Positions 9,762-34,454 are shown, counted from the first letter of the stretch. The stretch is DNA of 64,000 nucleotides from an uncultured delta proteobacterium (GCA_963731795.1 CAVSWU010000003.1:838216-902215); one strand, 5' to 3'. Numbers and translations are program-made. Notes: generated from the sequence alone by a model not told the origin.

Positions 9762-11572
9762 CTACTCCTCCGTCTTCAGGACCGCCAGGAAGGCTTCCTG
9801 AGGGATCTCCACCGAGCCCACCTGCTTCATACGCTTCTTGCCCTCTTTCTGCTTCTCCAGCAGCTTGCGCTTACGGCTGATGTCGCCACCGTAGCACTTG
9901 GCGAGCACGTTCTTGCGCATGGCGGAGATCGTCTCTCGGGCGATGATCTTCGCGCCGATGGCCGCCTGGATGGCCACCTCGTACATCTGCTTGGGGATGA
10001 CTTCCTTGAGCTTCTCGCACACCTCGCGGCCGCGCTGGTAGGCGCGCTCGCGGTGGACGATGACGCTCAGGGCATCCACCGGCTCGCCGTTGATGAGGAT
10101 GTCCAGCCTGGCCAGCTCCGCCTCCACGTAGCCGGCCAGCTCGTAGTCGAGGCTGGCGTAGCCGCGCGACACGCTCTTGAGCTTGTCGAAGAAGTCGAAC
10201 ACCACCTCGGCCAGCGGCATCTCGTACGTCACCTGCACGCGCTGGCCGCTGGAGCCCAGGTACTTCATGTCCTTCTGCACGCCGCGCCGGTCCTGGCACA
10301 GCTTGAGGATGGCGCCCAGGTGATCGTTGGGCACGTGGATGTGGCAGGTGAGGATGGGCTCCTCGAACTTCTCGATGTTCTGCACTGGCGGCAGCTTGGC
10401 TGGGTTGTCGATGAGGAGCGTCTCGCCCTTGCTGGTGGTGATGCGGTACACCACCGAGGGCGCCGTGGTGATGAGGTTGAGGTTGTACTCGCGCTCCAGG
10501 CGCTCCTGGACGATCTCCATGTGCAGCAGGCCCAGGTAGCCGCAGCGGAACCCGAAGCCCAGCGCCGTGGAGGACTCGGGCTCGTAGGTGAAGGCCGAGT
10601 CGTTGAGCTTGAGCTTGGCCAGCGCGTCGCGCAGGCCCTCGTACTCGGCGGAGTCCACCGGGAAGATGCCGCTGAACACCATGGGCTTCACTTCCTTGAA
10701 GCCCGGGAAGGGAGCGTCCGTGGGGCGCGCCTCCTCGGTGACGGTGTCACCCACCTTGGCGTCCTGCAGCTCCTTGACGTTGGCCACCAGCACGCCCACC
10801 TCGCCGGCCATCAGCTGCTGCACGGGCCGCGAGAAGGGGCTGAACACGCCCAGCTCCTGCACCTCGAAGACCTTGTTGTTGCTCCACAGCTTGATCTTCT
10901 GCTTGAGCTTGAGCGTGCCCTCCAGCACGCGCACCAGCGTCACGACGCCCCGGTAGTTGTCGTACCAGCTGTCGAAGATGAGGGCCTTGAGCGGCGCGCT
11001 CGGCTCACCCCTGGGCGGCGGAATCCGTTCGACCACCGCCTCGAGGATGTCGTGGATGCCGATGCCCTCCTTGGCGGAGGCCGGCACAGCCACGGACGCG
11101 TCGATGCCGATCACGTCCTCGATCTCCGATCGGGTGCGCGCGACGTCCGCGCTCGGCAGGTCGATCTTGTTGATGACCGGGATGATCTCCAGGTTGTGGT
11201 CCAGCGCCATGTAGACGTTGGCCAGCGTCTGCGCCTCGACGCCCTGGCTGGCGTCCACCACGAGCAGGCGCCCTCGCACGCGGCCAGCGAGCGGCTGACC
11301 TCGTAGGCGAAGTCCACATGCCCCGGCGTGTCGATGAGGTTCAGGACGTACTGCTTGCCGTCCTTGGCCGTGTAGTTCATCCGCACGGACTGGGCCTTGA
11401 TGGTGATGCCCCGCTCACGCTCGATGTCCATGTTGTCCAGGAACTGAGCCTGGGCCTCACGCTTGGTCAGCGTCCCCGTCTTCTCGAGGAGGCGGTCCGC
11501 CAGCGTCGACTTCCCGTGGTCGATGTGGGCGATGATGCAGAAGTTGCGAATGTGGGCGTTCTCAGCCGGCAT
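9762..11572 (-). CDS. lepA: Elongation factor 4 (LepA), split by a 1-nt deletion near 11263-11268.
   Basis: N-terminal ORF: [22 protein letters not shown]...[26 protein letters not shown] second frame continues [22 protein letters not shown]...; the expected GCGCTG reads GCCTG. Confidence 0.85.
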
Positions 11573-20084: not shown

Positions 20085-22214
20085 TCAAGGGTGCGCGATG
20101 AGCAGCAGGGTCGGGGCGCGCGTCATCACACAGTTCAGCGCCTGCCGGAGCGTCTCGGGGTCCAGCGCGGCGAAGCTCTCATCCAGGATGACCAGGTCCG
20201 CCCCCTGGAGAATGGTCCGCGCCACATAGATGCGGCTCTTCTCCCCATGCGAGAGCTGCCAGCCGGTCTCCCCCACCATCTGCATCATGCCTCCCGGCAT
20301 CCGGTCGAGCAGCGCCCCCAGGCCCAGCTCCCGGCAGATCGCCTCTGCTTCCTCGAGATCCACGGTCCGGGGAGGCCACTGCCGGCCCAGCAGCAGGTTG
20401 AAGGCGATCGGTGCGGAGAGGATGTGGTTCTCATGGAACTGGGGCGCGGACGCCACGTGGCGGCGCCAGCCCACGAGCCCCAGCGTGGGCTTGTCCAGCC
20501 CGTGCAACAACAGCAGCCCCTGGCTGGGTGCACGCAGGCCCGCGAGAATGGAGCCAAGCGTGGACTTGCCACTCCCGGACGCGCCCTCGAGCAGGAGCCG
20601 ATCGCCGGCGCGAACTTCCAGGCTGCAGTCGCGCAGCACGGGGCTCGGTCGCCCGGCATGCTGGAACGTGAGCGACTGCGCATCGAGAACGGTCTCCTCC
20701 GGCACACTTCCCTGGCGCGGAGAGGCCGCGAGCGCCGCCGTGGTCGTCACCTCAGCGCGCGCCGTCGCTCGCTGGAGTGGAGCCACCTGCTCCCAAGCCG
20801 CGGCGGCGCCCAGGAGGTCCGGTAACCCCGCGACGAGCAGTCGGAAGGCACGAAAGGCCAGCAGGAGCCCCCCGAGCGCAAGCGCGAGCCCAACCGGTTG
20901 AGTCCTCCCCTCGACGAACGCGTGCCCGAGCGTGGCGACGGCTACCACCAACCAGCCGCGCGGCACCAGGACCACCATCCAGGCGTACATCCGGTCCAGC
21001 CTCCGAGACGCCTCGAGGTATTGCTCAAGCGCGAGGTCATCGGCCCGGTACCAGCGCTCCTGGGCTTCCTGAGCCACGCGGGTCCGGTGACCCGCCATCT
21101 CCTCCACCAGCCCATGGGTCATCGTCATGCGGATGCGTGTCCACAGCTGGCGCTGCCGCATGTAGCGCACCGACAGCAGGACGGTCAGTCCCACCCAGGC
21201 GAGCAACCCCAGGTTCTGCGCCCACCCGTACGGTCCGAGGCCGAGCACGACTGCCGCCATGCCGAGCTCGACCATCGCCACCACACAGACGAGCCCGCCC
21301 CCGACGGTGAGCGTCTCGATGGCATCGGCCTCGATGACCCGGCCGAGCAACCGCCCTGCCCCCTCATGTCGTATCTCGCCCGGATCGAGCAGCAGTGCCC
21401 CGAACAGCAGGCGCTGCTTGAGCGCGCTGCCCAGCTCGATTCCCATGAGCCCCGCGAGCCAGCTGGAGGCAATCCGGAACGGCAATGTACAGATGAGCAG
21501 CAATCCCCAAGCGACCAGCCAGGACAGCTCGAGGTTCCCTGACAGCACGCTCCGTCCCACCACCCACCAGGAGAACAGGAGCAGGGCGTACTCGGCGGCG
21601 CGCGCGAGCAGGAGCACCGCCAGATGACGGCCCAGCCGCGCCAGGGAGAGCTGCCCTAGCAGTCCGGCGCCGGGTTGCCGGCGGAGCAACCAGCACCCCC
21701 GCAGCACGGTGCCCCCGAGTTGATCGCGGAGGATTGCGCGGCGAGAGCGGGCACGCTGGCGCTCAGGAACGTCGGCGCTCTCGAGCACGACGTCGACCGC
21801 GGGCAGCAGCGGCGCCTCGACAATCTCGCAGAAGGCCGAGCGTACCACCTCCACGTCAACCTCCACCCTCTCATCCTCCGTGGTGCGGAGATGGACCCTG
21901 CCGCGGCGGCTCCCCACGAGCACGAGGAAGCGCGGCTCGGGGCCGAAGAGCCGCACAATGGAGGGCCCGGCATGGCGCAGGAGTGCCTCCACATCCTTGT
22001 AGCGAGCCTCTGCGTACTCGGCCTCGAGGCCCAACCAGCTCGCGGCGCCCTCCATCCAGCGCGCCAGCGCAAGGCCCCCGGGCTGAACAAGGTCAGCGGC
22101 GGGAGCAGGCAGCCCCGTGGTACGCACGGGAAGCCCTGCCGCTCGCACGAGGACCTCTATCGCCTCACCCAGGCGGTGGAGGGGCCAGCACGCCTCCGGC
22201 GGAAGGACGCTCAT
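20085..22214 (-). CDS. ABC transporter with fused permease and ATPase, and a ~180-aa N-terminal accessory domain (NHLM/bacteriocin-exporter partner type).
   Basis: Six predicted TM helices followed by LLLEGASGSGKSTLGSILAGL...LSHGEKSRIYVARTIL...LVILDESFAALD (Walker A, signature, Walker B). Its ATG overlaps the upstream gene's stop (ATGA). Confidence 0.8.
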   Translation of the reverse strand: MSVLPPEACWPLHRLGEAIEVLVRAAGLPVRTTGLPAPAADLVQPGGLALARWMEGAASWLGLEAEYAEARYKDVEALLRHAGPSIVRLFGPEPRFLVLVGSRRGRVHLRTTEDERVEVDVEVVRSAFCEIVEAPLLPAVDVVLESADVPERQRARSRRAILRDQLGGTVLRGCWLLRRQPGAGLLGQLSLARLGRHLAVLLLARAAEYALLLFSWWVVGRSVLSGNLELSWLVAWGLLLICTLPFRIASSWLAGLMGIELGSALKQRLLFGALLLDPGEIRHEGAGRLLGRVIEADAIETLTVGGGLVCVVAMVELGMAAVVLGLGPYGWAQNLGLLAWVGLTVLLSVRYMRQRQLWTRIRMTMTHGLVEEMAGHRTRVAQEAQERWYRADDLALEQYLEASRRLDRMYAWMVVLVPRGWLVVAVATLGHAFVEGRTQPVGLALALGGLLLAFRAFRLLVAGLPDLLGAAAAWEQVAPLQRATARAEVTTTAALAASPRQGSVPEETVLDAQSLTFQHAGRPSPVLRDCSLEVRAGDRLLLEGASGSGKSTLGSILAGLRAPSQGLLLLHGLDKPTLGLVGWRRHVASAPQFHENHILSAPIAFNLLLGRQWPPRTVDLEEAEAICRELGLGALLDRMPGGMMQMVGETGWQLSHGEKSRIYVARTILQGADLVILDESFAALDPETLRQALNCVMTRAPTLLLIAHP

Positions 22215-24896
22215 GAGGTGCGCTCCTTCTCAATAGGCCGGCCGTCCACCATCCGCAGCCGGCGCCATGCGGCACTCGCCCAGAGCTCCTGGCGGACCTG
22301 CGCCTCGGTCTCCAGCAGGGCGCGATAGCGGGAGCCCTCGCGGGCCGCGAGCACCGTGGGAGGCCCATCCTCGATGATGCGCCCCTCGTCCATCACGACG
22401 ACGCGATCGAACCCGCGCGTCTCCGCGAGATCGTGGGTGATGCAGAGCATCGTCACCCCTGCCCACGCCTCGCGGCTCCGCGCGAGCAGCACGCGGCGAA
22501 GATCGCGGTCGAGTCCGCGGAAGGGCTCATCCAGGACCGCGAGCCGCACCCCCGGGCGCAGCAGTGCGCGGCCCAACCGCACGCGCTGCCCTTCTCCTCC
22601 GGAGACGAGCGCACCGCCCTCGCCCAGCGACGTCTGCAGCCCGTCCGGCATGGCCTCGAGCACCCGCTGCAGCTCGACAGCCTTGATGACACGCCCCACC
22701 CCCTTCAGGCCCTCGGAGCCATAGGTGAGGTTGTCGATGAACGAGCTGTTCCAGAGCTGCACCGCGGGCTCCACCCAGGCCGTCCGCCGCCGTAGCGCCT
22801 CGAGGCGGCCGGCGCTCAGCGGACGCCCATCCATCAGGACCCCTCCCTCACTGGCTCGATGCCAGCCGAGCACCAGGCCCACCAGCGTCGACTTGCCGGC
22901 TCCGGAGGCGCCCACGACGGCCACGTGCTCGCCGGGAGCAATCTCGAGCTCCACGCCGCTCAAGAGCGTATTCCCGGCCGCGACGACACTGACGCCCTCG
23001 AAGCGCAGGGCCACAGGCGCGTCCTCGGCATGGGGGAGCTCCTCGCCCCGCGCCTCTTCATCCGGCGCGCGAGGCTCTTCCAGCGCGCCAAGAGGCTCGA
23101 ACAACCGCAGGACGATGTTGCGGTGCCGCGGGAGCTGCCTGGCCAGGAGGGCAAGCTCCTGCCCGAGGGCCGGGATGTTCAGCGCCCAGAACAGGAGGAG
23201 CAGCGTGCCCGACATCCCCTCCATGTGGGGCAGGGCTCCGACGAAGAGCCACGTGGCGAAGCCCAGGGCGATGACCGTGGTGAGGACATCCGTCATCACC
23301 CCCGTCCGCAGCAGCGACTTCGCGGCCCTCGCCCATTCGACCAGCAAGCCCTCGTGCTCCCGCCGTACCATCCGCTCTGCGCCGTGCGTGCGGATGGCCG
23401 TCAGCCCGAGCAGCGCATCCAGGTAGAAGCGAGTGAGTCCTCCCGCATGGCTGCGGACACGCAGATCGCGCTCGATGAACGGCTTCTGGAGGACCAGGGG
23501 AACGAGCACGGCGGCGACCGCGGCGGCAATGGCGCGCGGAGCGCTGCTGGGATCGAGCCAGATGATGCCTGTCGCGCTCAGCACCATCTCCATGACCTGG
23601 CGCAAGAACCTGCCCGCGAGCTCCGGGGAGCTGGCGCAGCTGATGGCTGTTGTGGCAGCGCTCGGCCATGTCGGACATCGGGCGGCTCTGGAGGTAGCGA
23701 TCTCCAAGCCGGGGAATCTTCTGCACGAAGGCGATGCGCAGGCGTGCCTCGAGGTGGCGCCCGAGCCACTGGGTGCCCAGCACGAGGGGCACCTCGAGAA
23801 GGAAGAGGGCCATGAGGAAGGCGAGCAGCGCGGCGAGCGTACCGAGGCGCTGCTCGAACAGCACCAGCTTCGCTCCCACGTCGAGCATGCTCTTGAACAG
23901 GATGGCCAGGACTGCCATGGCGGCCGCCGCAACGGCGAAGCCGGCCGCGAGCATGGAGATGGTGAGGACACCACTCTGGCGAACCAGGCGCAGCAGCTCC
24001 CGGCCAGGACGCGCCTGCGGCTCGCGCAGCGCGGCCACCAACTCCGGAGAGCGCGGCTCCGGGACAGGCACGCCCTCGCCAGCCGCCTTCCGCGTGCCAC
24101 GGATGGTGATGAGGACCGCCCCGCGCAGCGACAAGCTCTCTCCCAGCTCCGGTGAGGGCGGCGCTGGCCGGACACACCAGAACATCTCGGGGATCACCTG
24201 GGTCTCGTCCCCCTCCCCCGCGGCCTCCCGGGCCGTGGACACGAGGTGCTCGAGCAGCCGAGCCGTCCTGGGACCTCGCGGCATGCCCCTCGATGCGGCG
24301 ATGGACTCGACCATCCGCACCGCGGCGTCGAGCCTCGCCGTCCCCCTCCACCCGGGCTCCGCCATGGCCGCGTCGATCAGCCTCGACCCTTCGTCCGCGA
24401 GGCCAACGCGGCGGCACCGCTGCCGGAGAACCCGCAGGAACGCGGGCGCCGCCGCGAAGGCCGTCCAGCTCGGCACCTGGATGAGCGAGGTGTGGACATA
24501 GACATCCTTGAGGAGTTCCTGGCAGGTGGTCCAGCGGCGGCCCGATGCCGGATCCATGAGCTGGATGAGAGGCCCCAGTCGCTTCCAGAGCACGACGAAG
24601 TGCGGGGCTCCGCTGGGCAGGCGCACGACAAGGATTGCGGGGATCGCCTCGGCCTCGTGGAGCAGGAGGTGATCGACCGGAGTCATGAACTGCTCGGCAT
24701 CCAGCCCGAGCTCGAGCGCGACCTCCTCGATGGTGTCGATGGATGTCCCATCGACGTCTGTCTGACAGGCCTCGCGCAGCCGGCCGTAGCTCACGTGAAC
24801 GCCCCACCCCTCGAGCAGGCACTTCAGCGACGCCGGGCCGCAATCCATGGCCGAAGTCTGTACTACCTCTGGAGCGAGCACGTTTCGGCGCATCAT
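22211..24896 (-). CDS. Peptidase-C39-domain ABC transporter (bacteriocin/RiPP-type maturation-secretion protein), frameshifted by 1 nt near 23623-23628.
   Basis: N-terminus: VVQTSAMDCGPASLKCLLEGWGVHVSYGRL...HFVVLWKR (C39 Cys/His). TM region, then VVGASGAGKSTLVGLV...LVSGGEGQRVRLGRAL...LAVLDEPFRGLD. The two halves are in different frames, joined at ...SHQLRQLP|ELAGRFLRQVMEM across a cccc run. Confidence 0.8.
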
Positions 24897-24902
24897 GGGT
24901 CC

Positions 24903-26081
24903 TCAGGCTCCTGTGCCACCACTCGCCTGACGCCTCTCGAGCATCCGGCCAGCGGCACGAAGGACGAGTTCCGCGGGCGAGGCTCGCTCCACCTGCACCT
25001 CCACTGAACCTGGCAGTCCATGCTGCAGGGGGATGGCAGGCGGCGCATGCCCCACGATGCGCAGCTCCACGCGCACCTTGCCATCGCGGACCTCGCTGCC
25101 GACACTCTCCACGAAGAGCTGCAGCATTCCGTACTCGGCCCATGGAAATCCGTCCAAGCGCAGCCGCGCCTGCTGACCAGGCCGAATGCGCCCGAGCGCC
25201 ACGTCCGGCGGAAAATCGGCGGTGACCTGCAGCCCTCCGGGTGGAACGACTGCGCTCAGCCGGAGCCCCTTGGTCACGACGGAGCCAGGCTGGAGCACCA
25301 CAATCTCCCCCAGCTTGCCGCTCGCGGGAGCCCGGATGCTCCGCAGCTCGATGGCGTGCTGCAGCGCCTCGATGTCCGCCTGCGCCTGCGCCTGCTGCCC
25401 GCGAAGCAGCTCGAGCTCACGTGCAAGCTTGGCGAGGTCCGTCTCCAGCTCCTCTCGCTTGAGGCGGTTCTCCGCGTCGATGCGGCCGACCCCCTCCTTC
25501 CAGGCCTTGGCATCGGCGCCCTGCTGCCGTTCCTCGGCGGTCATCCTGTCGCGCTCGGCCACCGAGATCATCCCCTTCTCCTGGAGGATGGCGGAGCGCT
25601 CTGCCTCGGACTGGGCGAGCCTGGCCCGCGCCGTGGCGCCCTGCTGGCGAGCGCGCGCCTCCGCGAGCTGCGTTCGCGCGACCCGCTCGTGCTCAGCCAG
25701 GGTCCGTGTCTGTGCCTCGACTTCCCGCTCGAGCAGTCCGTGCTGCGATGCCAGGCTCTCCACGAGCTTCCGCTTGGCGGCCAGCTCAATCTCGAGCGCC
25801 GCAGTATCGAGCCGGACGAGCACCTCCCCTGCCTCGACCTGCCTGTCGAGCGCCAGGGCGGATGACACCACCTTGCCGTCGACCTCCGACTCGATGGGGT
25901 GCACCGCCCCCCCCACCTCGACCCTCGCATCCGAACTCACCGCATAGACGGAGATGCGGAAGATGAGAAACCACGCGCCCCATACACCGCACAGCAGCAC
26001 GGCAATGACGAGCCACCGGCGGTAGCGGTGCGCCCCGTCGGCGGCGAGGGAGCGCAGGGAGCGATGGAATGGTATCGACAT
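24903..26081 (-). CDS. HlyD-family membrane fusion / secretion protein.
   Basis: N-terminal TM (WLVIAVLLCGVWGAWFLIF), a long coiled-coil (LEIELAAKRKLVESLASQHGLLEREVEAQ...), and a C-terminal β-barrel region (IRAPASGKLGEIVVLQPGSVV). Confidence 0.8.
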   Translation of the reverse strand: MSIPFHRSLRSLAADGAHRYRRWLVIAVLLCGVWGAWFLIFRISVYAVSSDARVEVGGAVHPIESEVDGKVVSSALALDRQVEAGEVLVRLDTAALEIELAAKRKLVESLASQHGLLEREVEAQTRTLAEHERVARTQLAEARARQQGATARARLAQSEAERSAILQEKGMISVAERDRMTAEERQQGADAKAWKEGVGRIDAENRLKREELETDLAKLARELELLRGQQAQAQADIEALQHAIELRSIRAPASGKLGEIVVLQPGSVVTKGLRLSAVVPPGGLQVTADFPPDVALGRIRPGQQARLRLDGFPWAEYGMLQLFVESVGSEVRDGKVRVELRIVGHAPPAIPLQHGLPGSVEVQVERASPAELVLRAAGRMLERRQASGGTGA

Positions 26082-26090
26082 ACCCGCAGC

Positions 26091-27647
26091 TCAAGAAGCA
26101 CGCTGCTCCGCGGAGCGCGCCGGGGTCATGGACGGTGGAGGAACCTTCGGCAACACCCGGAAGAAGCGCTGCTCGCCCCGCCGGTAGTACGCCAGCAGGT
26201 CATCCCAGGCGCGGTAGTTGAGCTCCAGGACCAGGAGCATGTAGCCCATGGCCAGGCGCTGGACCGCGGGAGAGACCGTCTTGACCTCCGCCATCATCAA
26301 CCGCGGGATGCTGGTGTGATGATACTTCTCGTTGAGGAGGATGTGCTTGTCGAGCGACATGAACTCCCCCACGAGTCGCTTGTACGGTTCGTCCAGCGGG
26401 GAGTCGGCACCGAGCACGCCTTCGGTGATGAAGATGGATACGATATAGGCGACAGGGTCCATCATCCCCAGTTGCGTGAAGACATCCACGTAGGCGTAGT
26501 GCAGCGGCAGCGGCTGAGCGCCCTTGATCTGCTCCTCGGACAGGCCCAGCTCGCGGCAACTCTGGTACTCGAGCGCGTCATGCCCGACCTCCTCCGCGTA
26601 GTACCGGAACGCCTTCGTCCGCAGAGAGGCATTCAGGCGCCTGGGCAGGAGCGTGGCGACAATCTCGGGGAAGCGGGTCGTCACGAGGTAGTCCTGCAGG
26701 TAGCGCCCGTGGACCAGGATGAGATCCGCATCCGGGCCGGAGAGTGCCTTCAGGTACTCGGGCTCGCCGACCCGGATTGACAGCTCACGGCCGACCCGCT
26801 CGATCTCCAGCATGAACTCGATGCCCGTCATGCACTCCCTGGGCTCGTACGGCGCCTCGCAAAAGCGCCGGGACCTGGAAGCATCCGTGCCGCTGACCAG
26901 ACACTCCGCGAGCCCGTTGAGATGGCGCTGCGCATCCACGGAGGAGTACGCGCCGCCTGCGAGCTCGCAGAGCAGCTCATTCAGGCCAGGCTGCGCTCCC
27001 GTCTCTGCCTCGAGCCGGCTCTGGAGCAGCAGCAGCGCCTGCGTGCAGCACACCAGCGACAAGGGCGCGAGCCCCCGCTGGTAGAGCCCCTGCACCGCAG
27101 CGATCTGCTGATAGAAGTTGCCCAGGCGCAGGATCTCCGGAGCGCTGAGCTGTCGGTGCTCCGTCGGCGGCAGCGGCTTCTGCAGGGGCAGCGTCCGCGA
27201 GAACTCCGACGTCAGCCCCGTGTAATGCGCACCGAGCGTGCGGACATTCGCGAGGAGCGCCTGCCGCCGTCCCGGTTCCACCTCCTGCAGCACCGCCTCG
27301 ACACAGGCGGCAATCGAGTCACTGAGCCGGGTCACCTCGGCATCCCGGCGGCTCTTGACCTCGTGCGCGGCATCCCGCAACAGGCCCAGGTAGTCCATCG
27401 TCGTGAGCAGCTCGCGCCAGTCAGCGTCCGGGGGAGCGGACAGGACCTCCTTCCAGGTGGGCGACCCGGGCTTCCGCAGCGCATCCAACCGGGTGACGAT
27501 GTCCTGAGGCGTCGTGGAGCTTCCGTGCTCGATCACGTACTCATTGGCCTCAGCCGTGACACACACCTCGCCGGTCGCCTCATCAATCCGCACGCCTGAG
27601 ATTGCAAGATACGGAGACTCATACTTCGTGATGCTCCAGGCTTCCAT
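26091..27647 (-). CDS. RRE (PqqD-like) domain fused to a heme-oxygenase-like (PF14518/iron-containing redox enzyme family) domain. This is the large paralog, 518 aa.
   Basis: N-terminus: ISGVRIDEATGEVCVTAEANEYVIEHGSSTTPQDIVTRLDAL...LLTTMDYLGLL (PqqD-like). C-terminus: AFRYYAEEVGHDALEYQSCRELG...EKYHHTSI, with E/H motifs shared with the two downstream paralogs. Confidence 0.6.
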   Translation of the reverse strand: MEAWSITKYESPYLAISGVRIDEATGEVCVTAEANEYVIEHGSSTTPQDIVTRLDALRKPGSPTWKEVLSAPPDADWRELLTTMDYLGLLRDAAHEVKSRRDAEVTRLSDSIAACVEAVLQEVEPGRRQALLANVRTLGAHYTGLTSEFSRTLPLQKPLPPTEHRQLSAPEILRLGNFYQQIAAVQGLYQRGLAPLSLVCCTQALLLLQSRLEAETGAQPGLNELLCELAGGAYSSVDAQRHLNGLAECLVSGTDASRSRRFCEAPYEPRECMTGIEFMLEIERVGRELSIRVGEPEYLKALSGPDADLILVHGRYLQDYLVTTRFPEIVATLLPRRLNASLRTKAFRYYAEEVGHDALEYQSCRELGLSEEQIKGAQPLPLHYAYVDVFTQLGMMDPVAYIVSIFITEGVLGADSPLDEPYKRLVGEFMSLDKHILLNEKYHHTSIPRLMMAEVKTVSPAVQRLAMGYMLLVLELNYRAWDDLLAYYRRGEQRFFRVLPKVPPPSMTPARSAEQRAS

Positions 27648-27674
27648 GGCACTGACTCCTCAAGCAAAGCATGC

Positions 27675-28670
27675 TCAGTCGAACACGCGGGGGATACGGC
27701 TCTCCGGCCTGCCGTAGTAATCGACGATCTGCCCATCCATGATGACCAGGGACTCGACGAGGATGCCCATGTGGAGCATGACGATCCGTTGCTCCTCGTC
27801 CGAGACGCTCGGGACCTCGGCGAACAGGACTTCGCTGATCTCCTCGTGGTCGCCGTCCTTGTTGATGAAGGCATGGTCGAGGATGGGCTTGTGGAATGCC
27901 TCCGGCAGTCCAACCTCCACGCATCGCTTCTTGAATGCCTCGTGGAACTCCTCGCTCGTCTCCTCGAAGAGGAAGAGGGCCGCCTTGAACGAGAGCGGAT
28001 GCTGGCGGGCGTACACCCCTAGCGAGGAGCAGAGGGTGAACGTCATGGGCAGTGGCACCAGCCGGTCCAGCTCCTTGCGCCCGATGCCCACGGCGGCCAG
28101 CGAGCGCTCGATGAGGCGGTCATGGTGGAGCTCGGACACGAAGAAGTCCTGCAAGGTGCTCAGCGTCTTCCTCGTGTCATGGTGCGACAGCGCGGGGGCC
28201 AGCAGCCCCGGGCACATGCGAACGATGTGGTAGTACTCGAGCACGTAGCCGATGAGCTGCTCGCGGCCCAGGCTGCCATCCACCAGGCCCTGGTAGAACG
28301 AGCGGGCGCTGTACTTGCGCTTCGCGCGCTCCATGAAGCGCTGCAGCTCCCGGTAGAACTGCGCCCCGCGCTTGGCCTTCCGCGGCTGGGTGGACGTCTC
28401 GGTGAGCAGGCCCAGGCGATCGAGATCCCGGCAGATCCGGCCGACCTCCCTGGAGAGCGCCGGCAGCCTCGTCGAGAGCTCCTCCAGGGAGTTTCCTCCA
28501 CGCTGAAGCATGTCGAGCAGGCGCACCGAGTCCGTGCGCGTCTCCGGCGCCAGCTCGAGCTCGTACTCCTCGTCGCGGTACTGGAGGACGACGATACCGT
28601 CCGTGCTCGTCCGCATCGTGACCGCCTCACGCAGACGCGGCTGTTGGAAGAAATTAGTCGTTACAGTCAT
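27675..28670 (-). CDS. RRE (PqqD-like) domain fused to a heme-oxygenase-like (PF14518-type) putative di-iron oxidase, paralog B.
   Basis: N-terminus: GIVVLQYRDEEYELELAPETRTDSVRLLDMLQRGGNSLEELSTRL...ICRDLDRLGLL. C-terminus: LEYYHIVRMCPG...FVSELHHDRLIERSLAAVGI...FEETSEEFHEAF...ILDHAFINKDGDHEE. Confidence 0.65.
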   Translation of the reverse strand: MTVTTNFFQQPRLREAVTMRTSTDGIVVLQYRDEEYELELAPETRTDSVRLLDMLQRGGNSLEELSTRLPALSREVGRICRDLDRLGLLTETSTQPRKAKRGAQFYRELQRFMERAKRKYSARSFYQGLVDGSLGREQLIGYVLEYYHIVRMCPGLLAPALSHHDTRKTLSTLQDFFVSELHHDRLIERSLAAVGIGRKELDRLVPLPMTFTLCSSLGVYARQHPLSFKAALFLFEETSEEFHEAFKKRCVEVGLPEAFHKPILDHAFINKDGDHEEISEVLFAEVPSVSDEEQRIVMLHMGILVESLVIMDGQIVDYYGRPESRIPRVFD

Positions 28671-28703
28671 GGTCGCCTCGAAGGCAGCAGCGCTGCCCCG
28701 GAA

Positions 28704-29696
28704 TCAGATGGCCGACAACCGGCGCACGAGCTCCTCCGCACCCGTCTTGGGGGAGTAGAACTTCCAGATGGCGGTGTAGAAGTCGTCGTACATCTCGACG
28801 AACAGCCGCATCTCCCGCCGCAGCCGCGCCATGGTCTCATCATCCACGAAGGGGATCTCCGCGAAGAGGAGGCGTGTCAGGTTGCCGTGCTCTCCCTTGC
28901 GGTTGATCTCCGAGTGGTCACGCATCGGCTTGATGAACCCGGGGGGCAGCTGGGCCTTCTTGCAAGCCTCGATGAAGAGGTCCTCCTCGGGGTCCTTGCC
29001 CTCGAGCACCCCCAGCGTGGCGAAGAAGAAGAGGGGATCGCTGGCCGCCCAGTACGAGAGCGCATTGCACAGCGCCAGCGTCTCGGGCAGGGGCATCATG
29101 TCCTGCACGTCGGCGCGGCTGAGCCCGAGCGCGAAGATCGCCTTGATGATGATCTCGTCGTGGCCGTACTCGCTGCAGTAGAACTCGTTCATCAGCTGGC
29201 GGACCCGGGTGTTCGGGATGTAGGGCAACACCGGGGAATCAAAGAGGCTCTCGCGGAACAAGAAGTGGTAGTTCTCGATGGCAAGGCCATAGAAGGCCGT
29301 CCTGGGACAGCCGACCGGGTCCTCCAGCAGGTGGGTCCAGAAGATGTTGCGGTTGATGCTCTTCTCCATCAACGCGTTGGCGAGGTCCTCGAGCTCGAGC
29401 AGCGCCTGGGAGCCCGTGCGAAGCTCGAGGGTGCTCGCATCGTCGAGCAGTCGGCAGCGCTCCAGGTCCTCCAGCAGGCTCCCGAAGCGCTGCCGCTGGT
29501 CCGTGTCCAGCCCTCGCTGAATATCGCGGACCGTGCGTCTCCCATCCAGCTGCTTGAGAAAGCCATGGATGTCTTCAGTGGACGAGCCCTCGGGCTCCAG
29601 GGCGAACTCCACCCCATCCCGGGCCAGCGAAAGCTCGGCGTCTGTGATTGAGACCTCGCCAATCAGACGAGGGCGAGAGTCAGGTGACTCGAACAT
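28704..29696 (-). CDS. RRE (PqqD-like) domain fused to a heme-oxygenase-like (PF14518-type) putative di-iron oxidase, paralog C.
   Basis: Start at MFESPDSRPRLIGEVSITDAELSLARDGVEFALEPEGSSTEDIHGFLKQLDGRRTVRDIQ (PqqD-like). Then AIENYHFLFRES...EFYCSEYGHDEIIIKAIFALGL...MRDHSEINRKGEHGN. Confidence 0.65.
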   Translation of the reverse strand: MFESPDSRPRLIGEVSITDAELSLARDGVEFALEPEGSSTEDIHGFLKQLDGRRTVRDIQRGLDTDQRQRFGSLLEDLERCRLLDDASTLELRTGSQALLELEDLANALMEKSINRNIFWTHLLEDPVGCPRTAFYGLAIENYHFLFRESLFDSPVLPYIPNTRVRQLMNEFYCSEYGHDEIIIKAIFALGLSRADVQDMMPLPETLALCNALSYWAASDPLFFFATLGVLEGKDPEEDLFIEACKKAQLPPGFIKPMRDHSEINRKGEHGNLTRLLFAEIPFVDDETMARLRREMRLFVEMYDDFYTAIWKFYSPKTGAEELVRRLSAI

Positions 29697-29776
29697 GGTG
29701 TCGCTCTCCCTTGATGTTGAACTCGAGTGGCCGCGGTGGATGGGTGACACAGTCCATACACGTCTGGCGACCCGCC

Positions 29777-29802
29777 CCGGAGCAGTGAGCTCACCGCTCC
29801 GG
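29777..29802 (-). promoter_or_regulatory. Strong RNA hairpin in the 128-nt spacer between the peptide gene and the first modification-enzyme gene, an attenuator or processing site candidate.
   Basis: The mRNA strand CCGGAGCGGUGAGCUCACUGCUCCGG forms an 11-bp stem (one G-U pair) with an AGCU loop. It is GC-rich with no U-tract. Confidence 0.5.
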
Positions 29803-29823
29803 GACGCTTTCCACCTGGGACAA

Positions 29824-29991
29824 CTACAGGTGCACTGCGATGAGAGCACCCGCCATCACGCCCGTCTTCAGGCGGATCTTCAGAGCGCGATGCTCCGTCA
29901 CGACCTCCTGTTTGAGCTCGGTCGCGCTGCTCTCCTTCCTGGCCTCGGTTTCGGTCGCCATCGTTTCCTCCTGGTCTGCGTTCTTCTGCAT
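29824..29991 (-). CDS. Candidate RiPP precursor peptide (55 aa; 45 aa if translation starts at the second ATG, 29961).
   Basis: MQKNADQEETMATETEARKESSATELKQEVVTEHRALKIRLKTGVMAGALIAVHL. Both ATGs have Shine-Dalgarno sequences (GGTGGAGG, AGGAGG). The N-terminus is charged and helical, leader-like. The C-terminus is hydrophobic, with Gly/Ala and one His. It is co-directional with the RRE enzymes and the exporter. Confidence 0.5.
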   Translation of the reverse strand: MQKNADQEETMATETEARKESSATELKQEVVTEHRALKIRLKTGVMAGALIAVHL

Positions 29992-30196
29992 CGTGCCTCC
30001 ACCTTGGAAGCACACCTCGATTGATCCGCGAGGATTCGAATGTGACGCCCTGGGAGCAGAGTTGCTTCTTGTATGACGGGCGGCCATGCGGGCACCGATC
30101 CCCGAAGGCTCCGCGAGCACCTGGAGCAGCATGGGTGGAAGCTTCTCGGGGAGATCTGGGTTGAGCGCGATATGAGCCCGCGATAGGAGCCGCCGG

Positions 30197-31363
30197 ATGA
30201 GACAACCCACCATTGGAATACTGGCCGGCATGGGGCCGAGGTCCACGGCCCCCTTCATCGACCTGGTGATAACAGAATGCCAACGTCAGTACGGCGCGAC
30301 AGATGACATCGACTTTCCGAAGATGATGGTCTGCTCGCTGCCGACCCCGTTCTACCCGGAGCGCCCCACCGACCATGCCGCGATGGAAGCCACCCTGCGC
30401 ACAGGGCTCCAGGACCTGGCGCGGACCGGGGCTGACTTCATCGCCATCCCCTGCAACACGGCACACATCTACTACCCGCAGCTGAAGGACAGCATCGATA
30501 TCCCGCTGTTGAACATGGTCAGGCTGGCGCTCGAGGCCATTCCCGAGTCCGCGAGGTCCATCGCGCTCATCGCGGCGCGCCCCACGGTCGAGGCTGGCAT
30601 CTACCAGGAGGGCCTCCGGGAACGCGGCTGTCAGGTAGCCGATGTGGACTGGCAGCGAGAGGTCGATCAGCTGATCGGTGCGACCAGGACCTTGAGGGAT
30701 CCTGCCCTGTTCCGCTCACGCTGGGGCGAGCTGGCACGACGGGCGAAGCTGGCCGGGGCAGACACGCTCCTCATTGCCTGCATGGACCTGAGCGCGGTCA
30801 GGCTCCACCTGGACACCGAGCTGCGGGTCCTGGATGCGGGGCAATGCCTGGCTCAGGAGATCGTTGCCCAGTGGCTGTCACGCCGCGACCGCGACGCGGA
30901 GGATCCGGCACGTCACGAACGTCATCGCGGGCCCTACAGGGTGACCTCGGATCCAAAGCAACTCGATATCGCGGCGATACACGCCTACCTCACCCGCTCC
31001 TACTGGGCCGAGGGAATCACGAGAGAGACAGTCGCGCAGTCGATCCAAGCTTCCCTGTGCTTCGGGCTCTTCGACAATGCTCGCCAGGTGGGCTTCGCGC
31101 GGGTCATCACGGATCATGCAACCTTTGCCTACCTGTGTGACGTCTACGTCCTCGAGGAGTACCGCGGGCAGGGCCTGGGGACGTGGCTGGTGAAGAGCGT
31201 CACCGAACACCCGGCGCTGACAAGGGTTCGCCGGTTCCTCCTGGCCACCCGGGATGCGCATGGGCTGTACTCGAAGTTCGGCTTCTCCCCCCTGCAGGCG
31301 GCCGGCCGGTTCATGGAGATCTTCCGGCCAGAGCTCTACAAGCCGGCACGTAGAAACCAATGA
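30197..31363 (+). CDS. Asp/Glu racemase-family domain fused to a C-terminal GNAT N-acetyltransferase domain.
   Basis: N-terminus: IGILAGMGPRSTAPFIDLV...IAIPCNTAHIYY...LLIACMDLS (the two Cys motifs of Asp/Glu racemases). C-terminus: VGFARVITDHATFAYLCDVYVLEEYRGQGLGTWLVKSV (GNAT Q/RxxGxG/A). Confidence 0.7.
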   Translation: MRQPTIGILAGMGPRSTAPFIDLVITECQRQYGATDDIDFPKMMVCSLPTPFYPERPTDHAAMEATLRTGLQDLARTGADFIAIPCNTAHIYYPQLKDSIDIPLLNMVRLALEAIPESARSIALIAARPTVEAGIYQEGLRERGCQVADVDWQREVDQLIGATRTLRDPALFRSRWGELARRAKLAGADTLLIACMDLSAVRLHLDTELRVLDAGQCLAQEIVAQWLSRRDRDAEDPARHERHRGPYRVTSDPKQLDIAAIHAYLTRSYWAEGITRETVAQSIQASLCFGLFDNARQVGFARVITDHATFAYLCDVYVLEEYRGQGLGTWLVKSVTEHPALTRVRRFLLATRDAHGLYSKFGFSPLQAAGRFMEIFRPELYKPARRNQ

Positions 31364-31407
31364 CCAAGGTCTCAGTGAATGCTCCCAGGACTCCGCGGCA
31401 GCGGGCC

Positions 31408-31803
31408 TCAGGGCTTTCGCTGGGTAGGGCCTCCCGGGGCCGCTGGAGCCTGCTGAGCTCCCCGTGCGCTCATACAGCGCTCCATCATCTGTGCCATGCG
31501 CTGTACGTCAGCGACCTTGGCAGGGTCCTTCGCGGTGAAGCGCAAGACGGCTCCCGAGGGGGTCTGCTCGACCGCCACGTCCGCCATGCCGCTCATCGGG
31601 CAGCTCATCCCCGCCTGCCCGTGCATGCCCCCCCCGTGCATCATTCCGCCCTCCCCCATCATGGGACAGGTGCAGTCCGTGCCCTGCTGACTGGCCGTGC
31701 CTTGTTGGGGCTGAGGAGCGGGAGCCTGGCTTGCGCCCTGGCTGAAGGCAGGCAGCCCGGTGATCAGTCCCGCAATGATGAACGCTCGATGGTGCGGCTT
31801 CAT
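31408..31803 (-). CDS. Secreted Met/His/Gly-rich putative metal (Cu) binding protein.
   Basis: MKPHHRAFIIAGLITGLPAFSQG (signal peptide) ...CTCPMMGEGGMMHGGGMHGQAGMSCPMSGM. The MxxM/MH clusters resemble periplasmic Cu(I) binders. Confidence 0.55.
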   Translation of the reverse strand: MKPHHRAFIIAGLITGLPAFSQGASQAPAPQPQQGTASQQGTDCTCPMMGEGGMMHGGGMHGQAGMSCPMSGMADVAVEQTPSGAVLRFTAKDPAKVADVQRMAQMMERCMSARGAQQAPAAPGGPTQRKP

Positions 31804-31964
31804 GAGTTCCTCCCTGGGTGAGCACCACTCCTCCCGGAAGGTGGCTACGGCTCCGCAAAATGGCGAGCGGACCCCAGGGCGGGCTCTCCACGTCAACGCC
31901 CTTCCCCATGGCGGCGGTTGCCAGCCCCCGCTCGGTACCCCACCTTCCTCCTGGTACGCCGACC

Positions 31965-34454
31965 ATGCGAATCCCTATTCCCGTCCGCCGCCTCCCGGCT
32001 CCGCTCGATGACGCCCATGGCCTCGACGCCGATGCGGTGCGCGAGAGGCGCGCGCGCTACGGGCCCAATGACGTGCTGGCGCGGCCTCGACGCTCGGGGC
32101 TCGCGGTGCTGCGCGAGACGGCCGGAGACCCGATGCTCTGGTTCCTCGTGGGAACGAGCGCGCTCTACCTCGTGCTGGGAGAGCGAACGGAGGGGCTGGT
32201 GCTGCTGCTGGCCATGGTCCCGCTGCTGGGCATGGATGCCTTCCTGCACCGCCGGACGCGTGCCTCCACGGAGGGCTTGCAGAGCCGCCTGGCCGCGCAC
32301 GCCACGGTGCTGCGCGATGGGCGCGAGCAGCAGGTGCCCGCGGATGAAGTGGTCGTGGGCGAGCTGGCACGGGTAGAGGCGGGCGAGTACTTCCCCGCGG
32401 ATGGAGTGGTCCTGCGCGGCGACGGCCTGCAAGCCGAGGAGTCCTCGCTCACCGGAGAGTCGCTGCCCGTGCGCAAGCGGCCGCTGCCCCGCCTGCCTCC
32501 GGGAGAAGAGCCGGCGGTGGAGGGACAGCACTGGGGGCTGGCCGGAACGCGGCTCCTGACCGGGACGGCCTGGGTGCGCATCGTCTTCACCGGGCAGGAC
32601 ACGTTCTACGGGGCCATCGTGCGCTCGGCCACGCAGGGTGGGCATGCGCGCACGCCGCTCCAGCAGGCCGTTGCCCACCTGGTTGCGGTGCTGATGGGCG
32701 TGGCCGCCATGCTGTGCGCGATGCTCGCGTTCGTGCGCTGGCACCAGGGCTTCGGGTGGATGGATGCGCTGCTGAGCGCGGCGACCCTGGGCGTGGCGGC
32801 ACTGCCCGAGGAGTTCCCGGTGGCCTTCACCTTCTTCCTGGGAGCCGGCGTCTACCGGCTGGCGCGGCGACAGGCCCTGGTGCGGCGCGCGGTATCCGTC
32901 GAAAACATCGGCCGTGTCACCTGCATCTGCTCGGACAAGACGGGCACGCTGACGGAGGGGCGCCTGCGGGTGGCCAGCGTGCTGCCCGCGCCGGGCGTCC
33001 AGGCCGACGAGCTGCTGCGGACAGCGGCGCTCGCCTCACGCGAGGAAGGAAGGGATCCGCTCGATGCCGCGCTGCTCGAAGAAGCCGCGCGCACTCTCTC
33101 CGGCGCGGCCCGCCCGAAGACCGAGGCCACCTTCCCCTTCACCGAGGAGCGCCAGCGTGAGACGGCGGTGGTGGAAGACGCGGAGGGACTCCTGCTCGCC
33201 GCCGTCAAGGGTGCGCCAGAGCGGGTGCTGGGCCTCTGCACGCTGGGGGCCGAGGACCGCGTGGCCTGGGAGCAGCGCGTGTCAGCGCTCGCGGGCGAGG
33301 GGCGCAAGGTCATCGCGTGCGCGAGCCAGCCTCTGGAGCCCGCATCCTGGCGAGGCGGTGAGCCGGAGCGAGGCTTTCACTTCCTGGGCCTGATGGCCTT
33401 CGAGGATCCGGTGCGCCCGGGGGTGCCGGAGGCGGTACGGGAGTGCCGCGAGGCCGGCCTGCGCACGGTGATGGTGACGGGCGATCACCCAGCGACGGCC
33501 TTGGCGGTGGCGCGCAGGCTGGGGCTCGGTGGGGAGCGGCCCCAAGTCCTCACCGGCGAGGAGCTGGAGGCGCGGCTGCACGAAGGGCAGGTGCCGCACG
33601 TGGACGTGGTGGCCCGCGCGGTGCCGGCGCAGAAGTACGCGCTGGTGACGGCGCTCCAGCGGCAGGGCGAGGTGGTGGCGACCACGGGGGACGGCGTGAA
33701 CGACGTGCCCGCGCTCCAGGCGGCCGACGTCGGCATCGCCATGGGGGAGCGAGGGACACGCAGCGCGCGCGAGGTGTCCTCCATCGTGCTGCTGGACGAC
33801 GACTTCGGCACGCTGGTGCGGGCCATCGCCGAGGGCCGTCAGCTCTTCCGCAACCTCCAGGGATGCTTCCTCTACCTGCTGCTCATCCACATCCCACTGG
33901 TGACAACGGCGGCGCTGCTGCCGCTGGCGGGCTATCCGCTCCTGTACCTGCCCATTCACATCGTCTGGCTGGAGTTGATCATCCACCCCACCGCGATGCT
34001 GGCCTTCCAGGCTGCGGCGCGCCCGGGGCGCCTGGAGCCGATGCGGCACCAGGGCCCCGCGCGCTTCTTCTCGGCGGCGGAGTGGGCCACCCTCATGCTG
34101 GTGGGCGCACTGGTCACGGTGGGGCTGGTGTGGAGCTACGACCAGAGCCTGGGCGCGGGGCGCGACGTGGAGCACGGGCGCGCGGTGGCGCTGGCCTCGC
34201 TCACGCTCGCGAGCGCCGTCTTCGCGGCGGTGCTCACCGGGTTGGGGACACGCACGGCCCGCTGGGTCTGCGCGATGACGTTGGGAGGCTCGGTGCTGCT
34301 CATCCAGGTGGAGCCCCTGGCGTCCTCCTTGAGGCTGCACCCCCTGCATGCGGATGACTGGGCGCGCGTCGTCGTGCGCGTGGGGGTGGCCTCTCTCCCG
34401 CTGGTGCTCTCGCGCCTGCGCTGGAGCAGGGTCGCCACGCCTCGTCCGCCGTGA
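31965..34454 (+). CDS. Cation-transporting P-type ATPase (P2/P3-like, with a Cation_ATPase_N domain).
   Basis: LDDAHGLDADAVRERRARYGPNDV...ICSDKTGTLTEG (DKTGT phosphorylation site)...VMVTGDHPATA...GDGVNDVPAL. There is no heavy-metal CPC motif. Confidence 0.85.
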   Translation: MRIPIPVRRLPAPLDDAHGLDADAVRERRARYGPNDVLARPRRSGLAVLRETAGDPMLWFLVGTSALYLVLGERTEGLVLLLAMVPLLGMDAFLHRRTRASTEGLQSRLAAHATVLRDGREQQVPADEVVVGELARVEAGEYFPADGVVLRGDGLQAEESSLTGESLPVRKRPLPRLPPGEEPAVEGQHWGLAGTRLLTGTAWVRIVFTGQDTFYGAIVRSATQGGHARTPLQQAVAHLVAVLMGVAAMLCAMLAFVRWHQGFGWMDALLSAATLGVAALPEEFPVAFTFFLGAGVYRLARRQALVRRAVSVENIGRVTCICSDKTGTLTEGRLRVASVLPAPGVQADELLRTAALASREEGRDPLDAALLEEAARTLSGAARPKTEATFPFTEERQRETAVVEDAEGLLLAAVKGAPERVLGLCTLGAEDRVAWEQRVSALAGEGRKVIACASQPLEPASWRGGEPERGFHFLGLMAFEDPVRPGVPEAVRECREAGLRTVMVTGDHPATALAVARRLGLGGERPQVLTGEELEARLHEGQVPHVDVVARAVPAQKYALVTALQRQGEVVATTGDGVNDVPALQAADVGIAMGERGTRSAREVSSIVLLDDDFGTLVRAIAEGRQLFRNLQGCFLYLLLIHIPLVTTAALLPLAGYPLLYLPIHIVWLELIIHPTAMLAFQAAARPGRLEPMRHQGPARFFSAAEWATLMLVGALVTVGLVWSYDQSLGAGRDVEHGRAVALASLTLASAVFAAVLTGLGTRTARWVCAMTLGGSVLLIQVEPLASSLRLHPLHADDWARVVVRVGVASLPLVLSRLRWSRVATPRPP

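Follow-up and report, generated by a model that had tools for sequence, protein, structure and literature searches.

A 64,000-nucleotide stretch of DNA from an uncultured delta proteobacterium (GCA_963731795.1, CAVSWU010000003.1:838216–902215), hereafter the window, carries three co-directional minus-strand open reading frames (ORFs), A, B, and C, which fit positions 26091–29696 exactly, counted from the first letter of the window. Each joins an N-terminal winged helix-turn-helix (wHTH) domain with the fold of a RiPP recognition element (RRE) to a heme-oxygenase-like domain, where RiPP denotes a peptide made by the ribosome and modified after translation. Together with a small gene upstream of A that encodes a candidate precursor, and with exporter genes downstream of C, they belong to a predicted, uncharacterized RiPP biosynthetic gene cluster (approximately 20085–31363), in which the C-terminal tail of the peptide would be oxidized and the product exported by a Peptidase-C39/ABC transporter. 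We assign this reading a probability of roughly 0.7. The enzymes appear to be of an undescribed, class-defining type. No description of fusions between an RRE and a heme-oxygenase-like dimetal oxidase (HDO), or of these precursors, was found in the published literature, in which subscription journals were only partly covered, and an earlier report is possible.

Three paralogs with RRE-type and heme-oxygenase-like folds

Gene A (28704–29696, minus strand; 330 residues, ATG at 29696), gene B (27675–28670, minus strand; 331 residues), and gene C (26091–27647, minus strand; 518 residues) are separated by spacers of 33 nt (A–B) and 27 nt (B–C), with 9 nt between C and the next gene. The wHTH spans approximately residues 5–89 of A (nucleotides 29430–29684), 11–91 of B, and 12–92 of C. 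In C, an extra helical insert (residues ~96–260) lies between the wHTH and the heme-oxygenase-like domain (residues ~275–489). A and B are 29% identical end to end (E = 8e-34), and both match C over the C-terminal domain, in the C-terminal ~250 residues (B–C, E = 4e-12; A–C, E = 9e-12). Identities between the three paralog groups are 21–29%. The N-terminal domains are likewise homologous in profile–profile comparisons (A–B: probability 96%, E = 2e-9; A–C: 92%, 5e-7; B–C: 45%, 2e-4).

The initial annotation, made from the sequence of this stretch, described three tandem paralogs, and this is borne out by similarities well past chance and by the exact ORF bounds. The motifs that it quoted are all found: GIVVLQYRDEEYELELAPETRTDSVRLLDMLQRGGNSLEELSTRL...LDRLGLL (residues 25–89), LEYYH, SELHHD, and DHAFINKDGDHEE in B; ENYH, SEYGHD, and DHSEINRKGEHGN in A; and EEVGHD in C. 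Recent tandem triplication was ruled out. The three genes fall into distinct, ancient orthologous groups that span phyla, and the order A–B(–C) is kept in several of these.

An AlphaFold2 model of B, calculated with 64 orthologs in the input (mean predicted local distance difference test score 89.9), comprises N-terminal β-strands followed by three helices (residues 11–91), and then a helical bundle. The N-terminal ~90 residues of A, B, and C adopt a winged helix of the RRE fold, with a three-stranded sheet preceding three helices as in solved RREs, and the best structural match of the N-terminal domain is a solved RRE with bound peptide. The C-terminal domain forms the seven-helix bundle characteristic of heme-oxygenase-like proteins. 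The values listed in the structural comparison are 21.4 for PDB entry 3DDE (a heme-oxygenase-like domain of unknown function), 19.0 for CtCADD, 18.4 for HrmI, ~18 for TenA proteins, 17.6 for HO-1, 17.4 for UndA, 17.1 for PqqC, and 15.5 for BesC. By structure and sequence together, the best matches are metal-binding HDOs (CtCADD, HrmI, and MboA), ahead of PqqC or TenA. A (36.6 bits) and B (28.9 bits) match Pfam family PF14518 (Haem_oxygenas_2, "iron-containing redox enzyme"; gathering cut-off 28.9 bits), while C scores below threshold (25.3 bits). Further, weaker Pfam matches of A and B are to TENA/THI-4/PQQC. Neither A nor C has a curated family in NCBIfam (release 20), where B obtains just a weak match to CADD (25 bits, cut-off 200).

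Candidate metal ligands were mapped by aligning a profile of the B oxidase domain to PDB sequences (MboA numbering is that of the 9YPI chain minus 25). The profile, which has a marginal sequence similarity to MboA (E = 0.009), places B residues E180, H183, D184, E236, H266, N270, and H275 on MboA Glu86, His89, Asp90, Glu143, His172, Asp176, and His181, respectively, and E180, H183, and E236 on residues 81, 88, and 142 of CtCADD. The corresponding motif residues are E176, H179, D180, E232, H261, N265, and H270 in A, and E353, H356, D357, E409, H435, N439, and H444 in C. In MboA, the diiron ligands are His89/172/181 with Glu86, Glu143, and Asp176, and Asp90 is an alternative Fe1 ligand (PMC13185094). 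The layout and spacing of the motif are shared with MboA: E-x2-H-D (core helix 1), E (helix 2), and H-x3-(D/N)-x4-H (helix 3). Little or no variation is seen in the columns E...H-[D/E], E, and H-x3-N-x4-H among 71 B, 26 C, and 26 A sequences from A–B–C loci, the window cluster included. At MboA-type spacing, all but one of the six canonical HDO ligand positions, together with the Asp90-equivalent, are retained in more than 120 sequences that span at least six phyla.

The His of LEYYH (H148 of B) had also been put forward as a ligand. This candidate was discarded, the position varying between W, H, Y, C, and F in A–B–C loci. The Glu equivalent to E145 of B is present in every A sequence and in nearly every B sequence. 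At the positions equivalent to E145 and H148, window C has Gln318 and Leu321; its orthologs carry Glu in 20 of 26 and His in 23 of 26 cases, and the Leu is unique to window C.

Precursor peptides and distribution of the family

The precursor gene (29824–29991, minus strand) lies directly upstream of A and encodes 55 residues, MQKNADQEETMATETEARKESSATELKQEVVTEHRALKIRLKTGVMAGALIAVHL; a GGAGG is found 5 nt before its ATG. The peptide ends ...AVHL, contains no Tyr, and is the sole ORF in the six frames of the window to end [PAI][VIL][HIV]L. In independent assemblies it is annotated as a 55-residue gene. The leader includes a conserved, strand-like segment, ...ALKIRLKTGVMAG, located 7–10 residues before the C-terminus in many clades, and a conserved ...KTG[VI][MA]AG precedes a variable stretch of 4–6 residues and the VHL tail. 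We propose a leader ending ...KTGVMAG and a core of ALIAVHL. The KTG[VI][MA]AG segment fits a Gly-type C39 cleavage site, and cleavage there would give a predicted product of 7–9 residues. Searches of the precursors against the leader families (NHLP, Nif11, lantibiotic) of Pfam and NCBIfam gave no meaningful match.

Related loci were collected with one genome per species, giving 69 loci from Sorangium, many cyanobacteria, Chromobacterium, Paraburkholderia, Burkholderia, Dyella, and acidobacterial, actinomycetotal, and other metagenome-assembled genomes (MAGs). Longest-ORF gene calling was noisy in those of high GC content, and strand-specific ORF lists with Pfam were used instead. Directly upstream of A, 61 of 66 loci (25/25 A–B–C loci and 36/41 A–B loci), which represent at least six phyla, have a small ORF that ends [P/A/I][V/I/L/A][H/I/V..]L. 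Among nearby small ORFs, 72 of 1039 carry the motif, versus 19 of 9245 elsewhere in the loci, and the terminal Leu is found in all 68 unique ORFs that match it. No precursor was found in loci L010, L030, L036, and L046.

Leaders and cores vary widely from clade to clade. That of Chromobacterium has 26 residues (MQTSMQEAVVVVKPRNPRPVLVPVHL), and that of Burkholderia ends ...GGKHYLVTVNKPDGTPTLIAIHL. In an Actinomycetota MAG (locus L035, 8734–8790, plus strand), a 19-residue precursor, MKITVTPRKKRAAGVALHL, with an ...HL end lies upstream of an A–B–GNAT–MFS arrangement lacking C; standard gene callers would miss it, and it is among the shortest RiPP-like precursors that we have met. Cyanobacterial precursors have double-Gly leaders and Pro-rich cores of ~35–65 residues, end ...[C/T]-[P/A]-V-I-L, and often occur in several copies. 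Up to four tandem precursor genes with ...PVIL ends are found in Rivularia sp. PCC 7116 (locus L003, 3717–9950) and other cyanobacterial loci, and many cyanobacterial precursors carry Cys, Thr, or Ser at position −5 and Trp or Tyr at −6. Upstream in the Rivularia locus are genes for an APH-type kinase and a HopA1-type lyase. We suspect that this kinase–lyase pair dehydrates Ser/Thr, which would add further modifications.

An exhaustive profile search of 1.84 billion proteins yielded 699 representatives at 50% identity (E ≤ 1e-3), 116 of them at E ≤ 1e-30; the family is modest in size and widely spread. Homologs of B are abundant in Sorangium and cyanobacteria. A precedes B in every locus having both. 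Among non-cyanobacterial loci, C follows B everywhere but in L030 and L035; cyanobacteria lack it. B is the universal member, and its ligand positions are intact in all 71 orthologs. In the A–B-only loci (cyanobacterial, with L030 and L035 set apart), A has lost most ligands (H to Q, E to A/T, H to L, and H to Q/P), and the peptides that accompany a degenerate A end V-I-L or V-V-L. An intact A is found together with C, except in L030 and L035, which have an intact A and no C, and the peptide ends ...HL beside an intact A wherever a precursor was found.

A natural A–B fusion of ~700 residues (P0143) comprises a ligand-degenerate A-like half (45–351) and an intact B-like half (374–699). The existence of fusion proteins argues that A and B act as a pair. 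In the representative library, P0143–P0145, P0147, and P0194 (~610–705 residues) are about twice the length of a single family protein, with two B-profile stretches each. Two Burkholderia loci (L063, 7031–8128, and L065, 7032–8129, both minus strand) encode a fourth, divergent B-like paralog (73–80 bits) on the opposite strand, just upstream of precursor–A–B–C; in L063, a GMC oxidoreductase gene follows C.

A predicted tail-oxidizing pathway and its alternatives

In the pathway that we propose, the 55-residue precursor is made first, and the N-terminal RRE-type domain of each of A, B, and C would bind the leader segment ...ALKIRLKTGVMAG, bringing the tail ALIAVHL to the heme-oxygenase-like metal domain. 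There, the free carboxylate of the terminal Leu would ligate Fe1, by analogy with MboA and UndA, and O2 activation at the iron site would lead to oxidation of the last residues. The anchoring step has a direct precedent in MboA, which desaturates the last residue of a tripeptide that ligates Fe1 through its C-terminal carboxylate (PMC13185094), and substrate ligation of Fe1 is general in three-histidine, three-carboxylate (3H/3C) HDOs, as in UndA (through a carboxylate), AetD, HrmI, and PolF (PMC13185094, PMC13108848). Carboxylate anchoring would explain a last residue that is fixed at the very end of the peptide while the rest drifts.

The co-variation across loci suggests a division of labor in which B works on the universal Val/Leu tail, and ligand-intact A and C are added oxidases tied to His at position −2. 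A would act either as a second oxidase or, in cyanobacteria, as a leader-binding partner without catalysis. The reaction could be a desaturation, a hydroxylation, an oxidative decarboxylation of the UndA type that gives an enamide, or a His–Leu cross-link; those known for HDOs include desaturation, C–C cleavage, decarboxylation, and N-oxygenation. The suggestion in the initial annotation that three enzymes introduce three modifications into one peptide is plausible, since all three keep the full motif in A–B–C loci. The transporter, its adaptor, and a second ABC protein would then cut after the Gly-type site (MAG) and export the modified heptapeptide.

In its fullest form, the proposal is that RRE-fused, Asn-variant iron enzymes define a new RiPP class spanning Myxococcota, Cyanobacteria, Proteobacteria, Acidobacteriota, and Actinomycetota. 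A–B(+C) would clamp the leader, anchor the C-terminal carboxylate on iron, and oxidize C–H bonds of the last residues, for example by desaturating the terminal Leu or decarboxylating it oxidatively, with A and C carrying out His-directed oxidation or cross-linking. This chemistry and mode of delivery would be undescribed for ribosomal peptides or HDOs. On this fuller proposal we put even odds.

The exporter genes lie directly downstream of C. They encode a HlyD-family periplasmic adaptor (24903–26081, minus strand; 392 residues; Pfam HlyD_3, with the NCBIfam NHLP bacteriocin secretion protein family among its matches), the Peptidase-C39/ABC transporter, a predicted leader-cleaving exporter (22211–24896, minus strand, in two overlapping frames), and a second ABC permease/ATPase (20085–22214, minus strand; 709 residues; Pfam ABC_tran and ABC_membrane, NCBIfam NHLM_micro_ABC2), which is kept in Sorangium-type loci. 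The same set is found in those loci, where HlyD follows C in L001, L002, L005, L006, L007, and L009, and lies upstream in L008.

A number of observations count against the pathway outlined above, and they are gathered here with the alternatives that they favor. For gene C, no solved RRE is among the top structural matches. Pfam PqqD (PF05402) has no match in the full proteins at E ≤ 1, and none at E ≤ 5 in full-length A or the isolated N-termini of B and C. With the PqqD models silent, the RRE assignment rests on fold and internal homology: as modeled, the N-terminal domains are RREs by fold and not members of the PqqD family by sequence. Of the PqqD-like RRE first described at these N-termini, the RRE-type wHTH fold stands, and the family assignment does not. 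The two conditions that the initial annotation named as refuting it, ligand positions out of register with HDO sites and N-termini lacking a wHTH RRE fold, were both examined, and neither came out against it. The N-terminal domains give weak matches only, to unrelated wHTH families (ArsR/MarR/LysR-type, E = 0.05–0.2). Such matches, and the historical annotation of TenA-family proteins as regulators, would fit three wHTH transcription regulators with a heme-oxygenase-like sensor domain, the upstream small ORF being coincidental. This is hardly credible given that a peptide-bound RRE is the structure closest to the domain and that 61 of 66 loci have the ORF with its C-terminal motif; regulators would also sit poorly with the presence of three such proteins in one operon, A–B fusions, and an attached exporter.

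The ligand set differs from the canonical one at the position of MboA Asp176, where all three paralogs carry an invariant Asn. To our knowledge, Asp is found at the equivalent position in all characterized HDOs. An acidic substitute for the lost Asp between H266 and H275 was ruled out, none being invariant. The proposed correspondence between conserved Glu/His residues and HDO di-iron ligands thus agrees with MboA at five of six positions and at the Asp90-equivalent, and departs from it at the sixth. Given this Asp-to-Asn change on core helix 3, the site may be mononuclear, bind another metal, or differ from known HDOs; 3H/3C, 3H/4C, and mononuclear HDO variants exist (PMC13108848). The change also bears on the possibility that the domains are not metal-dependent oxygenases at all, and are instead cofactor-less PqqC-type oxidases or non-catalytic peptide-binding chaperones or scaffolds, with the chemistry performed by another enzyme. 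One canonical ligand is removed, the degenerate cyanobacterial A demonstrates that non-catalytic members exist, and C scores under the Pfam threshold. We nevertheless hold a metal-free or non-catalytic role to be distinctly unlikely, as the remaining ligand positions, the Asp90-equivalent among them, are kept across three paralog groups of such low identity, the closest matches are metal-binding HDOs and not PqqC or TenA, and no further modifying enzyme is conserved across the loci.

MboA needs the reductase MboB, and no dedicated MboB-like reductase is evident here. The association of His(−2) with an intact A and with C is largely a split between two clades, cyanobacteria and the rest, and is consequently confounded by phylogeny and suggestive only. 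In the transporter gene, the frame changes at ~23604–23626, near the run "CTCCCCGGAG". In a tblastn search of the window with an intact 894-residue Sorangium ortholog, residues 1–432 align in one frame and 425–894 in another. The transporter gene is intact (893 residues, Peptidase_C39 and ABC_tran) in another assembly whose B protein is identical, which makes an assembly error, a strain variant, or a strain-specific pseudogene the likely explanation of the frame change.

In other phyla, the partners of the A–B–C module include an aminotransferase, a GMC oxidoreductase, an aldehyde dehydrogenase, and EamA/MFS exporters, which hints at a small-molecule product there in place of a secreted peptide. 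The peptide could then be a scaffold, as in the pathways for pyrroloquinoline quinone (PQQ) and mycofactocin, with Val-His-Leu oxidized or cross-linked and excised, and a small molecule as the product. Like MftA and PqqA, the precursors combine a strictly kept tail with variable and sometimes tiny sequences (19–26 residues in L035 and Chromobacterium). In Chromobacterium and Paraburkholderia, genes for a class-III aminotransferase, an EamA exporter, and a GNAT protein come after the module; Burkholderia and Dyella have a GMC oxidoreductase there, and an acidobacterial MAG has an aldehyde dehydrogenase. All are partners typical of small-molecule tailoring, export, or immunity. Against this stand the C39-ABC and HlyD genes of the window and Sorangium-type loci, a hallmark of secreted, leader-cleaved peptides, and the long Pro-rich cores that follow the GG leader in cyanobacterial precursors. 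The cluster contains no excising peptidase and no gene of the radical S-adenosylmethionine (radical-SAM) PqqE/MftC type, and the precursor has no Glu...Tyr pair. We consider a small-molecule product rather unlikely for this cluster, and favor the exported, tail-oxidized peptide.

Known systems and genomic neighborhood

The closest architecture is that of PqqD and PqqC, including the natural PqqCD fusion (PDB entry 5VRD). There the domain order is reversed, A, B, and C being RRE-first, and A, B, and C have a metal-type motif. PqqC needs no metal and acts on the intermediate once it has been excised; PqqD works for PqqE, a radical-SAM enzyme. The Glu-x3-Tyr pair of PqqA, PqqB, and PqqE have no counterparts in the cluster, and no radical-SAM or PqqB-like gene is present between 20085 and 31363. 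Mycofactocin biosynthesis (MftA/MftB/MftC) resembles the proposed pathway in its strictly kept precursor tail, RRE delivery, and oxidation at the terminal residue and its carboxylate. It differs in its radical-SAM oxidant, its separate RRE protein, and its product, an excised redox cofactor.

Multinuclear non-heme iron-dependent oxidases (MNIOs; DUF692) have a TIM-barrel fold. They show no homology to A, B, or C and perform mostly Cys/Asp/Asn chemistry. In A, B, and C, each catalytic subunit carries its own fused recognition domain. The pairing of an active enzyme with a degenerate partner in MNIOs recalls the cyanobacterial A–B pair. MNIOs such as MbnBC and TglHI contain multinuclear non-heme iron, use O2, and modify RiPP precursors delivered by a leader-binding partner of the RRE type (PMC9060507; bioRxiv 10.64898/2026.07.17.739211).

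The mangotoxin HDO acetylenase MboA (PDB entries 9YPI, 9YPL, and 9YPM; PMC13185094), which has the same heme-oxygenase-like fold, is the closest mechanistic analog. Unlike A, B, and C, it has no RRE domain, has Asp176 in place of Asn, depends on MboB, and acts on a tripeptide that is assembled by ATP-grasp ligases and not by the ribosome. The closest structures are the 4-aminobenzoate synthase CtCADD (PDB entries 8VA9 and 1RCW) and the Sden_3740 domain (3DDE). Both are stand-alone domains of ~230 residues with neither an RRE nor a precursor-peptide context; CADD is self-sacrificial, using its own Tyr and Lys, and 3DDE has the canonical HxxxDxxH. The heme-oxygenase-like VarO of the thiovarsolin cluster is genetically required for a dehydrogenation on a ribosomal peptide-derived product (2019; PMC6511847), and is the sole RiPP link cited for the HDO superfamily in a March 2026 review (PMC13108848). 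VarO, known by genetic evidence, is a single enzyme of a YcaO/TfuA thioamide pathway and has no RRE fusion. The earlier claim that HDO action on a peptide would be new chemistry is overstated, as MboA (2026, on a tripeptide) and VarO (2019, in a RiPP cluster) are already published.

About a dozen HDOs have been functionally validated, most of them on free amino acids or fatty acids (2026 review, PMC13108848). If the proposed pathway is correct, an oxidase hard-wired to a peptide-recognition domain would bring HDO chemistry into RiPP biosynthesis and engineering. The system is tractable, with precursors of 19–55 residues in several clades, a four-residue tail with an invariant Leu, and paralogs that can be tested singly or in combination. 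Cyanobacteria, with one predicted active enzyme and ...VIL, form a natural contrast to other phyla, with three and ...VHL, and the invariant Asp-to-Asn change poses a concrete question about metal cofactor assembly in the heme-oxygenase-like fold. Culturable hosts (Sorangium, Chromobacterium, Burkholderia, Nostoc/Rivularia) place the products and their bioactivity within reach.

Directly after the precursor stop codon is a GC-rich stem-loop of 15 bp without a T tract (29773–29806, minus strand). The minimum free energy of the RNA folded from 29697–29830 (minus strand) is −60.5 kcal/mol (z = −3.2; none of 200 shuffles as good). The position of this hairpin between the precursor and enzyme genes suggests a transcript-stabilizing or attenuating role. 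A scan around the precursor for sigma-70 promoters and intrinsic (T-tract) terminators found none.

A divergent gene (30197–31363, plus strand) encodes an unusual 388-residue Asp/Glu racemase–GNAT fusion (Pfam Asp_Glu_race and Acetyltransf_1/7/10). The whole fusion lies beside the cluster in Sorangium and relatives, and GNAT alone in Chromobacterium, Paraburkholderia, and Actinomycetota loci; it is a probable accessory gene for tailoring or self-protection. Farther out are ORFs that, read by eye without a Pfam check, we take to encode a P-type-ATPase-like protein (31818–34454) and a LepA-like GTPase (9762–11279). The GC content of the cluster region (26001–32000) is 64.5–65.5%, compared with 66–72% in most of the remaining window. 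The low GC content and apparently unrelated flanking genes are consistent with an island acquired by horizontal transfer.

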